Assembly: GCF_058153355.1 (NCBI RefSeq)
Contig: NZ_CM177019.1
Direction: 5' to 3' (one strand)
Length of the DNA: 64,000 nt
Below the pieces are notes generated by a model. It did not search any database. It saw nothing but the letters and a program-made list of their open reading frames with translations, and was not told the origin of the DNA. The translations under genes and the position numbers were made by a program. How positions within the stretch are numbered: position 1 is the stretch's first letter; every line of letters begins with the position of its first letter. This document shows, piece by piece, positions 4,696 through 40,807 of this stretch.

Positions 4696-6764
<2,069 letters not shown>

Positions 6765-6927: not shown

Positions 6928-8211
6928 ATGCAACTTACCAACGAAGAACAAGTACAGATTGCTCGTATAAAAGAAAAAATCCCACGCATTGCCGCACTGG
7001 ATCCTGAATGTAAGTTATTCGGTTCTGAAGGTTGGAAATATCAATGGCCGAAGCCTGCCAGCGAGGCGGAAATAGCTTCCTGGGAGAAAAAACATAGCGT
7101 CACTTTGCCACGGGAATATCGAATTTTTCTTCGCTATATCGCTAATGGCGGTCCGGCACATGCCTACGGTCTTGAATCTTTAGGCGGTACAGATATTTAT
7201 GGCGATATAACAAAAGAAAGCCCTGTACCGCTTTATATGACGCAGCAGGATGTTGATGTGTTGAATGCAGGCCGTACAGAAGATGATGAAGAATATAGTT
7301 TTTTTGACGGCGCATTGACCATTCTCACCCTGGGATGTACTTATGATATTTGCCTGGTGGTGACGGGGCAGTATCGCGGAAGGTTAATGCTGACTGATGG
7401 TGATGAAGATTATCCGTTTGATTTTATATATGATAAAAATTTCCTCAACTGGTATGAACGCTGGCTGGACGATTTTATTGCTGGCATGAGTATGAAGGGT
7501 TTCGATAGAAGTTTGCCAGGAACGCAAATTCAACTGCGTGAGTGGTTTTTAACTGAGAAAATCCCGGATTTACGTAGATCCATTTTATTCTCGCTATGCC
7601 GTTTTCCACAGATAGAACCCGAAACATTTGCCCTTTGGGAACATGTTTGCCGCACAGAGAATGATAAAGAATTGTGTGAAGAGGCATTCATAAGATTACG
7701 CCAAAAAAAAGTTTCTTGTGCTGCAGATATTTTTCGACTCTATTTTACAATGCCAGATGAATTACGTGATATTGCTATTAAAGATCTCCGTTTTGCCTGT
7801 AGAGATAGTGTGGTGAATATTGAGGATTATATTCATTCACTGTTAATAATAATGCCTGAACTTGACGATGACACTCTATCCTCAGCTGTCTTTGCTGTAC
7901 GAGAAACAGAGTATAATAAATATGATACTTTTCTGCCGCTTCTCGAACGTATCACTGATGACCGTCAGCAAACATTATTGTGGGCGATGAGTAAGGCGCC
8001 TGATTTCAATGAAAGCCGAGGATTCGTTGAGTTGGTATTACCGCTTTTTGCATCATCAAAGATGGAGAATGTAAGGAAGGCTATTTTGTTGCTCATTGAA
8101 GTTAAAGATAATCGTATTCCACCATTGGTTGATGAAGCTGCAACTCGTTTCCCTGAACTGACCATTTTACGAGAAAACTACTATCTCAGGACGTGGGGAC
8201 ATAAGCCATAA
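6928..8211 (+). CDS. Hypothetical protein with N-terminal SUKH/SMI1-KNR4-like domain and C-terminal alpha-helical (HEAT-like) repeat region; first gene of the AT-rich island
   Basis: Long ORF (427 aa from the ATG; the track starts 3 nt upstream at TTG). RBS aaggaa lies 7 nt upstream of the ATG. Motif SEAEIASWEKKHSVTLPREYRIFLRYIANGG resembles the SMI1/KNR4 (SUKH-1) signature. The C-terminal part, e.g. ENVRKAILLLIEVKDNRIPPLVDEA, looks HEAT-like. Not a K-12 gene that I recognise. Confidence 0.8.
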   Translation: MQLTNEEQVQIARIKEKIPRIAALDPECKLFGSEGWKYQWPKPASEAEIASWEKKHSVTLPREYRIFLRYIANGGPAHAYGLESLGGTDIYGDITKESPVPLYMTQQDVDVLNAGRTEDDEEYSFFDGALTILTLGCTYDICLVVTGQYRGRLMLTDGDEDYPFDFIYDKNFLNWYERWLDDFIAGMSMKGFDRSLPGTQIQLREWFLTEKIPDLRRSILFSLCRFPQIEPETFALWEHVCRTENDKELCEEAFIRLRQKKVSCAADIFRLYFTMPDELRDIAIKDLRFACRDSVVNIEDYIHSLLIIMPELDDDTLSSAVFAVRETEYNKYDTFLPLLERITDDRQQTLLWAMSKAPDFNESRGFVELVLPLFASSKMENVRKAILLLIEVKDNRIPPLVDEAATRFPELTILRENYYLRTWGHKP

Positions 8212-8248
8212 ATTAATGGCTCAGAAATGATCTAACGCGGAGAGAAAT

Positions 8249-8779
8249 ATGATCAGGGAACATATTCAGCAAGCGATAAATAATAGGTTAGCATTTGATG
8301 GCCCATTCAATGTTGTTCCTGAACCTGCAAGCACTGCGTTTGATAGCCGGATCCCGACATTGAAAAACGGTGTCTGGCAGAAGGCCAGCCCTATGTTGCA
8401 GGCGCGTTTTGCACATTGTGGACGTTGGTTAAGCGCTACACATGGAAGCTGGCTAAGTATAAGTGACATGGAAACGCTTTGGCAGGAACACATAGAAGAT
8501 ACGTTTCTTGATGAAATCAAAATGAATGCTGTAGCTTCAAGTGATAATTGGGATAACCATGCCTTGGGACTATTTCGTTCTCATCGCCTGTCACTTTTTG
8601 CCGGTAGTGATTACATTTATGAAATGGTTTTTCTCCTTTGGCTAGATAGTACCGTTGAGCCAGAGGTCTGGGTTTATGACTGCAATGGGGAATCACGTTA
8701 TAAAGATCTTAATGATTACCTGAATGCATATATTAATGATGACGTAAGCGCCTGTGAGCGCTCCTGGCGAGTAGAATGA
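8249..8779 (+). CDS. Hypothetical small soluble Trp-rich protein (island gene 2)
   Basis: 176-aa ORF with GGAGAG RBS 5 nt upstream, 37 bp after gene 1. No TM segment. No family recognised with confidence; the C-terminal VWVYDCNGESRYKDLNDYLNAYIND weakly recalls SUKH-type immunity folds. Confidence 0.75.
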   Translation: MIREHIQQAINNRLAFDGPFNVVPEPASTAFDSRIPTLKNGVWQKASPMLQARFAHCGRWLSATHGSWLSISDMETLWQEHIEDTFLDEIKMNAVASSDNWDNHALGLFRSHRLSLFAGSDYIYEMVFLLWLDSTVEPEVWVYDCNGESRYKDLNDYLNAYINDDVSACERSWRVE

Positions 8780-9402
8780 ATAGCCCCCCTTGCCCCTTTG
8801 ATCCACAAACCGCACATTACCTCGGTACAGTGCAAATCCACTACACCTCAACCACCTTCAACGCTGCCGTTAAGCATTATACCTATCACATTAAAAAGCG
8901 TTTTAAAGGGTTTAAATGGGGAATTGGTACCGCTGGCTTATTGGCTATATTGCCCATGATCCCACAATGGTTGAAACCTTCTCATGACTTTAAACTCAAC
9001 GCAATCAGTACGTTAATTCTTCTATTAATGTTGCCACTCCTCTTATCAATGTTCCTGTTAATCAGCAGAAGAATTAACGATTTTAAGTCAAAAACAAAGC
9101 AAGTTACTTTTACGAAACCCGTGCGTTATGCGTTTTATTTCGAGGGGATTGTTTTTTATGAATCTCATCAGCAGGGCATACTTCGCTGGGAAGATTTTTA
9201 TAGCATTGACTATGAAGAAGATTATTTGTGGCTTTTTCTGCATTTACCGAAGAGTTTTCCCAGAGAAGCGACGAAAGCGTTTTGCGATATTTTCATTCCC
9301 GCCAGCGCGATAAAAGCGCAGCCTGAACTGGATACGTTTTTTCGTGAAACACGCCACTATCTGGATTATCTGTTTGTCCCGTTTAATTCTGACAGAAAAT
9401 AA
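8776..9402 (+). CDS. Hypothetical inner-membrane protein (2 predicted TM helices) with C-terminal soluble domain (island gene 3)
   Basis: 208-aa ORF whose ATG overlaps the gene 2 stop (ATGA). Hydrophobic stretches WGIGTAGLLAILPMIPQWL (aa 48-66) and AISTLILLLMLPLLLSMFLLI (aa 76-96). The C-terminal ~110 aa are possibly YcxB-like/bacterial PH-like (unverified). Confidence 0.75.
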   Translation: MNSPPCPFDPQTAHYLGTVQIHYTSTTFNAAVKHYTYHIKKRFKGFKWGIGTAGLLAILPMIPQWLKPSHDFKLNAISTLILLLMLPLLLSMFLLISRRINDFKSKTKQVTFTKPVRYAFYFEGIVFYESHQQGILRWEDFYSIDYEEDYLWLFLHLPKSFPREATKAFCDIFIPASAIKAQPELDTFFRETRHYLDYLFVPFNSDRK

Positions 9403-37829: not shown

Positions 37830-38915
37830 ATGAAGACGTTTCCTTTGCAAAGCCTGACGCTTATTGAAGCGCAGCAAAAGCAGTTTGCGTTGGTGGATAC
37901 GATTTGCCGCCATTTTCCCGGCGCGGAGTTTCTTACCCGCGGTGATTTGGGCTTAACGCCGGGACTGAATCAACCGCGTATTACTCAGCGTGTGGAGCAG
38001 GTGCTGGCTGACGCGTTTCATGCGCCAGCGGCGGCGCTGGTACAGGGCGCGGGTACTGGAGCGATTCGTGCGGCGTTGGCGGCTTTGCTCAAACCGGGGC
38101 AGCGTCTTCTGGTGCATGACGCGCCTGTTTACCCGACGACTCAGGTCATTATTGAGCAGATGGGGCTGACACTTATCACTGCTGATTTCAACAACCTGTC
38201 GGCGCTTAAACAGGCCATTGAAGAGCAACAACCAGATGCCGCGCTGGTGCAGCATACGCGCCAGCAGCCGCAGGACAGCTATGTACTGGCAGATGTGCTG
38301 GCAACGCTGCGCGCAGCAGGTGTTCCAGCCTTAACCGATGACAACTATGCGGTGATGAAGGTGGCGCGCATTGGCTGTGAATGCGGGGCGAATGTCTCGA
38401 CATTTTCCTGCTTCAAGCTATTTGGGCCAGAAGGTGTTGGCGCGGTGGTAGGCGATGCTGATGTTATTAACCGTATTCGCGCCACGCTCTACTCCGGCGG
38501 CAGCCAGATTCAGGGCGCGCAGGCGTTGGAAGTCTTGCGTGGGCTGGTATTCGCGCCAGTGATGCACGCGGTACAGGCGGGGGTATCTGAGCGGTTGCTG
38601 GCTTTACTTAACGGTGGCGCGGTGGCGGAAGTTAAAAGCGCCGTTATTGCCAATGCACAGTCGAAGGTGTTGATTGTGGAGTTTCATCAACCGATTGCCG
38701 CCAGAGTGCTTGAAGAGGCGCAAAAGCGCGGCGCGTTGCCTTATCCGGTCGGCGCAGAGTCAAAATATGAAATCCCGCCGCTCTTTTATCGACTTTCCGG
38801 AACGTTTCGTCAGGCGAATCCGCAATTAGAACATTGTGCAATTCGCATTAACCCGAATCGCAGCGGTGATGAGACGGTATTGCGGATTTTGCGCGAGAGT
38901 ATTGCCAGCGTTTAA
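37830..38915 (+). CDS. yhfS: Putative PLP-dependent aminotransferase-like protein YhfS
   Basis: 361-aa ORF, last gene of the yhf cluster. Confidence 0.8.
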   Translation: MKTFPLQSLTLIEAQQKQFALVDTICRHFPGAEFLTRGDLGLTPGLNQPRITQRVEQVLADAFHAPAAALVQGAGTGAIRAALAALLKPGQRLLVHDAPVYPTTQVIIEQMGLTLITADFNNLSALKQAIEEQQPDAALVQHTRQQPQDSYVLADVLATLRAAGVPALTDDNYAVMKVARIGCECGANVSTFSCFKLFGPEGVGAVVGDADVINRIRATLYSGGSQIQGAQALEVLRGLVFAPVMHAVQAGVSERLLALLNGGAVAEVKSAVIANAQSKVLIVEFHQPIAARVLEEAQKRGALPYPVGAESKYEIPPLFYRLSGTFRQANPQLEHCAIRINPNRSGDETVLRILRESIASV

Positions 38916-39019
38916 TTCTGGGAACGATGTTTTCGCAGAGGATGGAGAAAAATACGCCCTCGGAAAATTCAGAGGGCGTTAGCTCATTAAATCGGTGTTA
39001 GCCGATTTCTGTCAGAGAC

Positions 39020-39187
39020 TTACTGTGCAGTAGGACCGCAACCGCCAATGATTTTAGAAATAGAAATTGCCGGGTGCAGCAGGTAGTCGTAAGAGCAGTT
39101 CTTATCACGGTTTTCAATATGACCAGTACATGCAGTTAACGTAGCCAGTACTGCACCTACCAGTGCAACTTTAATAAATTTGTTCAT
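39020..39187 (-). CDS. yhfL: Small lipoprotein YhfL
   Basis: Not in the ORF track (<60 aa). Manual minus-strand translation gives MNKFIKVALVGAVLATLTACTGHIENRDKNCSYDYLLHPAISISKIIGGCGPTAQ (55 aa) with a lipobox LTAC. Confidence 0.8.
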   Translation of the reverse strand: MNKFIKVALVGAVLATLTACTGHIENRDKNCSYDYLLHPAISISKIIGGCGPTAQ

Positions 39188-39433
39188 TTACATTCCCTAT
39201 GTATTATATATTAATTAATATTCATTGATTATATGAATATAAGCGGACTGCTCATAAAAAACGATACAGGAATATTTAATTGGCGTCAGTGAGTGAATGA
39301 CTTAATTTTGTAAGTCGCTGTAACGGTGAATATAATCCATTAGCAAATGATATTTATTAAGAGGGTATGCTTTATTTGCTGAATATATAAAAAGAGTGAT
39401 AAAGAGGGCCAGAATTATCTGGCCCGGGTAAAA

Positions 39434-40807
39434 TTAATGGTTAGAGAACCAGTTCAATTTATCGCGCAGGCCAACGACCCGACCAATAATAATTAATGAG
39501 GGACTGTTCATTTGCTGCGCCAGCTCGCCCAGCTGCGAGAGTGTACCGTCAATCACGCGTTGCGTTACCGCCGTACCGTTTTCGACAATCGCCACCGGCA
39601 TTTCGCCAGGCATTCCGTGTTCAATCAGTTTTTGCTGAATGGTCGCGGCCTGATTAAGCCCCATATAGAACACCAGCGTCTGTTTTTCGGCTGCCAGGTT
39701 TTCCCAGTCCAGCTCGCCACCGGTTTTTAAGTGTCCGGTAATTAAGCGTACGCTCTGAGCATAATCGCGATGCGTGAGCGGAATGCCCGAATAGGCAGAG
39801 CAACCAGAAGCTGCGGTAATACCTGGAACCACCGAGAACGGAATGCCTGCATTGCACAGTGTTTCCAGCTCTTCGCCACCACGGCCAAAAATAAACGGAT
39901 CGCCGCCTTTCAGCCGCACCACGCGTTTGCCTTTTTGCGCTTCCCGCAGCAGGATCTGGTTAATCTCTTCCTGCGGTACGCAGTGGTATCCCGCGCGTTT
40001 GCCGACGAAGACACGATCCGCATCGCGGCGTACCAGATTCATAATATCGTCAGAAACCAGACGGTCGTAGACCACCACATCTGCCTGCTGAATTTGTTGC
40101 AGTCCTTTTAGTGTCAGCAGACCGGCATCGCCCGGACCTGCGCCAACCAGCACCACTTCACCGCGATGATCGAGCGGTTCATTGATTAACTGTTCGGTCG
40201 TTTCGGTAATGGCTTTCTGATCGTTGTTCGCCAGCGACTGCGCCAGGCGATCATTAACGAACAGTTTTTCCCAGAAACGGCGACGTTCACCCATCGTGGC
40301 GAACTGTCTTTTGACCCGACCGCGTAACTGCCCCGCATATTTTGCTACCTGGCCGAGATGCAGCGGCAGCAGTGATTCAAGTTTTTCGCGCAACAGTCGC
40401 GCCAGAACCGGAGAGGTGCCGCCAGAGGAGACCGCTACCATGAGCGGGGAGCGGTCAATAATCGACGGCATAATAAAGCTGGCGGCTTTCGGCGCATCGA
40501 CCACGTTACAGAAGATACGACGAGATTCGGCGGCTTCGCTGACACGCTGGTTAAGCGCGTCATCATCCGTCGCCGCAATTGCCAGCCAGCAGGTGTCGAG
40601 AAGGCTTTCATCAAATGGCCCTTCGACGAGGGTTAACATGCCTGCATCTGCCCATGCGGTGAACTGTGGAATAAACGCTAATGCATTCACCGTTAAGCGA
40701 GCACCTGCGTCTAACAGCAACCTTGCTTTGCGTTCCGCGACATCACCACCGCCGACAATCAAACAGTCGCGGTCGCGTAATTGGCAAAATATAGGCAAAT
40801 GATCCAC
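39434..40807 (-). CDS. cysG: Siroheme synthase (multifunctional)
   Basis: 457 aa, [31 protein letters not shown]..., with a C-terminal SAM-dependent methyltransferase region. Confidence 0.95.

Follow-up and report, generated by a model that had tools for sequence, protein, structure and literature searches.

The AT-rich spacer between cysG and yhfL of Escherichia coli is probably an ordinary terminator and promoter–leader region

The closest described counterparts of the spacer between cysG and yhfL are the type-B-spacer constitutive promoters of E. coli (PMC3946193, PMC5493296), a catalogue in which the spacer is itself listed, alongside the H-NS-flagged, AT-rich upstream spacers of osmB, bdm and yhcN. 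Table 3 of PMC3946193 gives it as 'cysG > HNS > yhfL', with an RpoD-holoenzyme site and an H-NS genomic-SELEX site in the spacer, both in vitro, and Shimada et al. 2014 predicted the promoter TTAACG-19-TATAAT in K-12 (PMC3946193; hereafter P1); the comparative data presented here favour cTGACg-17-TATCGT instead (hereafter P2). H-NS-silenced islands and 'promoter islands' are alike in low GC, TpA steps and −10-like hexamers on both strands, but the present region is only about 250 bp long, lies at an ancestral syntenic locus and precedes an expressed gene. Rho-independent terminators share with it a GC-rich stem after a stop codon, a T-rich tail and a hairpin kept across lineages, although the T-tract is broken here (TCTTTATCAC) and forms a better run in other alleles (TTTTTCGTTT). 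The enterobacterial small-RNA candidate STnc340 is found in Salmonella at the orthologous place, directly upstream of yhfL, but Escherichia-type spacers do not match it and the sequences cannot be aligned. The spacer is thus already catalogued in genome-wide binding studies; the modest additions made here are firmer support for one promoter position and a candidate site upstream of it.

The window, by which we mean the whole 64-kb stretch of DNA analysed, is a segment of the E. coli chromosome, for which the RefSeq annotation of the near-identical NZ_AP027764.1, the closest complete genome (99.8% identity over the query), served as the reference. The cysG–yhfL spacer occupies positions 39188–39433 (246 bp), with minus-strand genes on either side; its features are collected in Table 1.

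Table 1. Predicted and annotated features of the cysG–yhfL spacer and its flanks (window coordinates).
Feature	Position	Strand	Basis or remark
yhfL intrinsic terminator	38944..38979	minus	RNA fold; kept in K-12, O157 and 2022H047
yhfL, 55-aa lipoprotein precursor, lipobox LTAC, PF13978/DUF4223	39020..39187	minus	ORF list, annotation
Predicted leader of yhfL, some 67 nt long with P2 as promoter	39188..39255	minus	GC, fold, diversity
Shine-Dalgarno region TAGGGAAT, 4 nt before the yhfL ATG (A at 39187)	39192..39199	minus	Invariance
Alternative promoter P1 (predicted), consensus TATAAT −10 element	39228..39233	minus	Prediction in PMC3946193, K-12
Proposed promoter P2, −10 element TATCGT	39261..39266	minus	5/6 invariant, fixed 17-nt spacing
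Proposed promoter P2, −35 element CTGACG	39284..39289	minus	6/6 invariant; RpoS SELEX peak
TTACA in tandem with a 10-bp period, GTTACAgcgaCTTACAaa, candidate activator site	39307..39324	minus	Conservation
Promoter-like site TTGTAA-17-TATAAT, 10/12, towards cysG 3' end	39308..39336	plus	Sole consensus-scan match
Fast-evolving AT-rich filler, terminator to yhfL control region	39325..39381	minus	Strain diversity
Predicted intrinsic terminator of cysG, hairpin and interrupted T-tract	39382..39425	minus	Terminator scan, RNA fold
cysG stop codon TAA, coding end of the nirBDC-cysG operon	39434..39436	minus	ORF list and RefSeq annotation
cysG	39434–40807	minus	ORF list and NZ_AP027764.1 annotation

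An earlier note on this DNA had described the spacer as strongly AT-rich, and so it is. Its GC content is 30.5% (69.5% AT) against 51.8% for the 64-kb window, 246-bp stretches as GC-poor make up 0.12% of the window, and the lowest value anywhere in the 64 kb (27.2%, at 39158–39403) falls at this spacer; one other place only, upstream of feoA, comes near it. The 24 intergenic regions nearby average 42.5% GC; all others above 200 bp in length are richer in GC than this one, and two shorter spacers, nirC–nirD and pabA–argD, are as AT-rich. The composition is uneven, with 15% GC at 39188–39240, 35% at 39251–39330, 24% at 39331–39405 and 54% in the terminator stem, and the AT-richness belongs to the TpA/ApT type (TpA makes up 13.9% of steps in the spacer versus 4.3% in the window), with only four A/T tracts of at least 4 nt. 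The accompanying description of the sequence as repetitive in A/T words points to nothing beyond chance: the spacer has 213 distinct 6-mers, as its composition predicts (219 ± 7.6 in first-order Markov simulations), and Tandem Repeats Finder returned no tandem repeats in it. It contains no open reading frames of at least 20 aa, and the smaller ones have no ribosome-binding sites.

Transcription from the cysG side meets a hairpin, GGGCCAGA-TAAT-TCTGGCCC (39406–39425), which starts 8 nt past the cysG stop and combines an 8-bp GC-rich stem with a 4-nt loop. It is followed by an interrupted T-rich tail, TCTTTATCACTCTTTTTATATATT (39382–39405). The predicted fold has a free energy of −16.9 kcal/mol (z = −5.25), and none of 200 shuffled sequences was equally stable. 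The hairpin is present in all strains compared and in other genera, and in one cryptic Escherichia lineage (L010) the stem carries a compensatory two-sided change (GGTCAGA/TCTGACC). By its sequence and predicted fold, the hairpin with its tail is predicted to be the intrinsic terminator of nirBDC-cysG. The U-run after the stem satisfies the scan rule of five T in eight, yet it is interrupted; because other E. coli alleles carry a better run at this place, termination efficiency may vary between strains. The 3'-end mapping supplement of PMC7815308 has no yhfL entry. Beyond the terminator, the filler has a pairwise diversity of 0.09–0.20 per site with indels among eight strains, as compared with 0.10 at cysG third positions.

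On the yhfL side, comparison beyond E. coli singles out one promoter candidate. The 17-nt spacing of P2 lies within the usual 16–18 bp, and its hexamers agree with the consensus at 8/12 positions, including the A at −11 and the T at −7, which falls short of the 9/12 that the consensus scan requires; in a position-weighted promoter scan it is the top minus-strand candidate. Its hexamers stand out from everything around them: across ten sequences, invariant positions number 6/6 in the −35 element and 5/6 in the −10 element, as opposed to 4/17 in the spacer between them, 0/25 in the 25 nt upstream and 1/30 in the 30 nt downstream. The arrangement CTGACG-17 nt-TAT(C/T)GT is kept in E. coli, in the cryptic Escherichia lineages L010 and L024 and in contigs L051–L054, whose cysG shares 75–81% nucleotide identity with that of the window, which is about the Citrobacter level and corresponds to genus-level divergence. 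Two further contigs, L055 and L056, were left out as lineages because they look like E. coli with errors (a frameshift; pervasive C-to-T changes). The published RpoS-holoenzyme peak at 3497370 (PMC5493296) corresponds to window position 39287, on the proposed −35 element, when U00096.2 is mapped through the yhfL ATG at 3497470, bearing in mind that SELEX resolves to roughly 100–300 bp and in vitro. A conserved hexamer pair within diverged flanks is, judged from the alignment, a core-promoter signature, and P2 is the most likely candidate for the yhfL core promoter; its working hexamers and exact start are what we infer from this pattern. The suggestion that the spacer is a promoter or regulatory region is therefore borne out, in that it is an AT-rich spacer that carries a promoter and is listed with RpoD- and RpoS-holoenzyme sites in published SELEX. 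No yhfL entries were found in the supplements of transcription-start, operon and 3'-end mapping papers, and other mentions of yhfL in the literature were not informative on its regulation.

Upstream of P2 lies a tandem TTACA repeat, centred at about −60 relative to the proposed promoter. It is kept in all E. coli strains and in L010 and L024 while its neighbours vary, and it is absent outside Escherichia. The repeat lies 35 nt from the −35 element in E. coli and 46 nt from it in L010 and L024; because this 11-bp indel is about one helical turn, helical phase is preserved between the lineages. Read as GTTAC-N5-CTTAC (GTAAG-N5-GTAAC on the plus strand), the repeat has a 10-bp period, within the 10–11 bp expected of such response-regulator sites, and may resemble the CpxR site GTAAA-N5-GTAAA and the sites of OmpR and RstA. 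Its conservation, period and phasing suggest that it may bind an OmpR/PhoB-type activator. The part of the PMC5217608 supplements that was consulted, from a paper that includes OmpR ChIP-seq, lists no other ChIP peaks for this spacer. Fur and RcsAB boxes, judged by eye against their consensuses, gave matches that were poor or not conserved.

From P2 to the start codon runs the predicted leader, in which the AT-richness of the spacer is highest (15–22% GC) and which is unstructured near the start codon (fold z of about 0). The leader is this extremely AT-rich only in Escherichia; the corresponding spacers of L051 and L052 have 40% GC. The Shine-Dalgarno region is invariant in all Escherichia and in L051–L054, and similar in Buttiauxella, Cedecea and Hafnia. 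A conserved 5'-leader hairpin was considered and rejected: pairings of the GAAT/ATTC type are possible in each lineage, but the partner arms differ and there is no clean covariation. None of the strains inspected differs in the encoded protein, WP_001031834.1. The gene is followed by a predicted terminator of its own (arms ACGCCCUC...GAGGGCGU, then AUUUUUCUCC), with which yhfL would form a complete transcription unit by itself. Just past this terminator comes the frl-island junction.

Constraint follows the same layout. In eight aligned E. coli strains, chosen to spread over the identity range and set against a diversity of 0.10 at cysG third positions, diversity declines from 0.09–0.20 with indels in the cysG-proximal ~100 nt, through about 0.05 in the next ~100 nt, to 0.01–0.02 in the last 55 nt. 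Among 5,426 complete E. coli genomes, 5263 of the 5264 records that match the yhfL-proximal 123 bp do so at 90% identity or more, whereas the cysG-proximal 123 bp are 60–90% identical in 2277/5426 records. The comparative alignment that the earlier note proposed thus gives a divided answer, with the yhfL-proximal part and the terminator hairpin conserved and the cysG-proximal part variable. Because constraint on the yhfL side coexists with drift on the cysG side, about half of the spacer appears to be neutral filler and half a constrained control region. A scan for YhfL with one genome per species yielded 39 loci, whose spacers range from 124 to 510 bp and from 26% to 45% GC. These spacers cannot be aligned between genera, with the one clear exception of CTGACG-17-TAT(C/T)GT.

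Other readings of the same sequence have to be weighed against this one. The architecture could be as described with P1 as the working promoter, which would shorten the leader to about 34 nt and turn CTGACG/TATCGT into an operator or activator site; in principle, the conserved hexamer pair could indeed be a protein-binding site instead of a promoter. P1, which lies 33 nt downstream of P2, has a perfect −10 element and was predicted in PMC3946193. Its TATAAT sits in the 7-nt gap of a conserved inverted repeat, ATATTCAT-N7-ATGAATAT (39218–39240), with the outermost base overlapping one arm, and it is overlapped by a Nac-type ATA-N9-TAT (39218–39232), one of seven in the 64 kb. The Nac match is rejected as a site, being at chance level (reached in 34% of shuffles) and some 280 bp away from the published summit of Nac ChIP. 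The −35 element of P1 is poor and varies between strains (TTAACG and TTAATG; TTTATG in this window), and the −10 element is kept within Escherichia only (as TATAAT, CATAAT or CATTAT), being absent from L051–L054, where CTGACG-17-TATCGT is kept. It is conservation alone that leads us to prefer P2 over P1; we regard P1 as a possible secondary start of yhfL and as rather unlikely to be the working promoter. Far less probable still is that the spacer encodes a small RNA, either an STnc340-like transcript opposite yhfL or one derived from the cysG 3' untranslated region and ending at the terminator. Such a transcript is suggested by the bigA–yhfL spacer of Salmonella, which matches RF02065 (STnc340) at 159 bits (gathering threshold 80) on the strand opposite yhfL, by weaker matches (31–57 bits) that share this position and strand in Citrobacter, Superficieibacter, Enterobacter and Leclercia, and by the 10/12 plus-strand site in the window. 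However, an Rfam scan of 38700–39700 with E values up to 10 gave no STnc340 and only two chance snoRNA matches, and the spacers of L010, L024 and L052–L054 did not match STnc340 either. The last T of the plus-strand −10 element occurs in this lineage alone, most E. coli, K-12 and O157 among them, having TATAAC, and the element is missing in L010, so the site is probably non-functional. Read on the plus strand, the cysG hairpin is not followed by a U-tract, the segment that such an RNA would cover is the one that varies most within the spacer, and the conserved elements of STnc340-type spacers are DNA palindromes (AGTCC-N6-GGACT and AAATGGA-N5-TCCATTT) that fit protein-binding sites equally well. 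Given that Escherichia-type spacers are unmatched and the plus-strand −10 is lineage-private, E. coli is unlikely to have an STnc340-like RNA.

The earlier note had proposed that the segment is bound by H-NS, horizontally acquired or silenced, and several observations speak for this. Spacer and yhfL together have 35% GC compared with 52% for the window, the GC3 of yhfL is 0.36 versus 0.56 for cysG, −10-like TAnnnT hexamers are 3–4-fold enriched on both strands, and the flanks are an accessory-gene hotspot (frl present or absent; bigA in Salmonella). Binding by H-NS is plausible, but tests on the sequence lend it little support. The in vitro SELEX flag speaks for it, although we take that flag with caution because the portion of the PMC3946193 supplementary rows that was consulted shows yhfL>frlA only. 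The spacer holds no match to the high-affinity motif TCGATAAATT at up to two mismatches; the nearest, with one mismatch, is at 39456–39465, 22 nt inside cysG, and the spacer contributes none of the 74 matches in the window, a number modestly above the shuffle mean of 58 and reached in 1/100 shuffles. Predicted curvature is moderate, with a peak of 27 degrees that at least 12 others in the window exceed, a value that serves as a within-window ranking only. A paper on FNR and H-NS names cysG only as a member of the nir operon. Foreign origin is contradicted on several counts. yhfL directly follows cysG in Citrobacter, Enterobacter, Leclercia, Lelliottia, Cedecea, Buttiauxella, Hafnia and Pseudocitrobacter, and in Salmonella bigA is inserted between the two; the spacer locus is single-copy in 5419–5424 of 5,426 complete E. 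coli genomes, YhfL does not vary among the strains inspected, and yhfL GC3 rises with host GC, from 0.28–0.47 in low-GC hosts to 0.61–0.75 in Enterobacter, Lelliottia and Leclercia. The promoter core persists at genus-level divergence, and the AT-rich tract extends over merely ~250–400 bp. Silencing is at odds with expression, since published control RNA-seq of K-12 gives yhfL 120.8 RPKM, about twofold above cysG (59.1). Nac induction is reported to lower yhfL from 121 to 0 RPKM, a 125-fold 'repression', with a Nac ChIP-seq region at 3497026–3497383 whose summit is inside cysG (Aquino et al. 2017). This 'repression' may be a library artefact, because the 'most repressed' list consists mostly of very short genes and tRNAs. 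Taken together, we consider a horizontally acquired, H-NS-coated and silenced segment decidedly improbable.

We therefore favour the reading in which the spacer is, very likely, an ordinary two-function region, a terminator followed by a promoter and leader. In this model, the GC-rich hairpin and T-tract after the cysG stop would end nirBDC-cysG transcription, and about 80 nt of AT-rich sequence would then drift freely between strains. P2 (39289–39261) would be read by sigma-70 and/or sigma-S RNA polymerase, with a start near 39253–39255, and the AU-rich, unstructured leader with its Shine-Dalgarno region should favour ribosome loading on the yhfL mRNA. The Escherichia leader would have gained TATAAT-like hexamers, one of which may serve as the second start P1. 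With this four-part anatomy, the AT-richness of the spacer is the sum of terminator tail, neutral filler and promoter–leader, and such an AT-rich promoter would be able to bind both RNA polymerase and H-NS in vitro, as many E. coli promoters are. A more speculative extension, which we hold to be unlikely, is that an envelope-stress regulator of the OmpR/PhoB family (CpxR-, OmpR- or RstA-like) activates P2 through the phase-locked TTACA repeat, while the TATAAT-rich leader of 15% GC recruits H-NS and extra RNA polymerase to tune yhfL. This arrangement would be an Escherichia innovation, with sister genera carrying the STnc340-type module, and if it were true, the region upstream of yhfL would have been rewired wholesale between genera.

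Beyond annotation, the significance of these results is small. They remove a false lead, the spacer being in all likelihood neither foreign DNA nor a silenced island, and they provide a model of how yhfL, whose lipoprotein product is conserved in enterobacteria and functionally uncharacterised, is transcribed from its promoter into a leader, with the likely promoter position corrected relative to the published prediction. In evolutionary terms, a minor point of interest is that the spacer has been rewritten almost entirely between genera, with a 29-bp promoter core in one group of lineages and an STnc340-type module in another.

Two cryptic Escherichia lineages (L010 and L024) carry an 11-bp insertion between the conserved TTACA tandem repeat, a candidate upstream activator site, and the proposed -35 element, with helical phase preserved. 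A short hairpin or palindrome of the GAAT/ATTC type can form in every lineage, including the contigs at genus-level divergence (L051–L054), around 12–35 nt into the predicted leader. It is organised around a conserved TATATTC, and the side on which the partner arm lies differs between lineages; this element may act as an RNA hairpin or as an operator, or may be a product of chance.

The Salmonella spacer upstream of yhfL matches the Rfam family STnc340, an enterobacterial sRNA candidate, at 159 bits, and weaker matches occur at the same place in four other genera (L012, L013, L015, L016, L017, L020, L022 and L025). The conserved parts of these spacers are two DNA palindromes, AGTCC-N6-GGACT and AAATGGA-N5-TCCATTT. 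The AGTCC-N6-GGAC palindrome is also present in L051–L054 and is absent from Escherichia. The palindromes may be protein-binding sites, instead of or besides part of an sRNA.

Coordinates of features in the window and in comparison loci
Feature	Window	Comparison locus
Stretch upstream of feoA	~1186-1486	
Extra genes between envZ and pckA	~6930-9400	L009: 6836-9310
yhfS-yhfL gap, compared with L001 and L005	38916-39019	
GAAT/ATTC-type leader element	39218-39240	
TTACA tandem repeat	39307-39324	
cysG	39434-40807	
GCGATAAATT	39456-39465	
Nac ChIP summit	~39501	
Salmonella yhfL-upstream spacer, minus strand		L049: 1825-1953
Salmonella enterica cysG-yhfL region with bigA		L049/L050: 1-2171
IS1A junction, strain SY3626		L003: 1489-2648

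On the other side of the spacer, the cysG allele of this strain shares only 95.0% nucleotide identity with K-12, and is about as distant from K-12 as from the cryptic Escherichia representatives (93.8–94.0%). Third-position diversity in cysG is 0.10 across eight strains, and a near-identical spacer allele occurs in only 13–14 of around 5,420 genomes. For an E. coli locus, cysG appears to be unusually diverse or recombinant. Inside its 3′ end, 22 nt upstream of the stop codon, GCGATAAATT matches the H-NS high-affinity motif with one mismatch. The published Nac ChIP summit (Aquino et al. 2017) also falls in the cysG 3′ end and not in the spacer.

Only one other stretch of the window, upstream of feoA, is equally AT-rich, with GC over 246 bp falling to a minimum of 30.5%. 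The yhgF–feoA spacer is likewise flagged for HNS in the published SELEX table (PMC3946193). In the closest genome, three extra genes lie between envZ and pckA, encoding a protein of the SMI1/KNR4 family plus two hypothetical proteins; together they could constitute a small accessory island of the immunity type. K-12 is not known to carry them there.

Gene content also varies next to yhfL. K-12 and O157:H7 carry the frlABCDR (fructoselysine) operon after yhfL. The window lacks this operon, and convergent yhfS comes directly after yhfL; the junction lies just past the yhfL terminator hairpin. Arrangements with and without frl are both common among complete E. coli genomes. Strain SY3626 has an IS1A element adjoining the cysG terminator and lacks the whole stretch from yhfL to the yhfZ side, as far as trpS, a further indication that what lies downstream of the cysG–yhfL spacer is dispensable. 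The yhfS–yhfZ cluster is also missing from L051–L053. In Salmonella enterica, the large bigA autotransporter gene lies between cysG and yhfL, and trpS directly follows yhfL. Therefore, yhfL is a boundary position, with accessory genes gained and lost on both sides.
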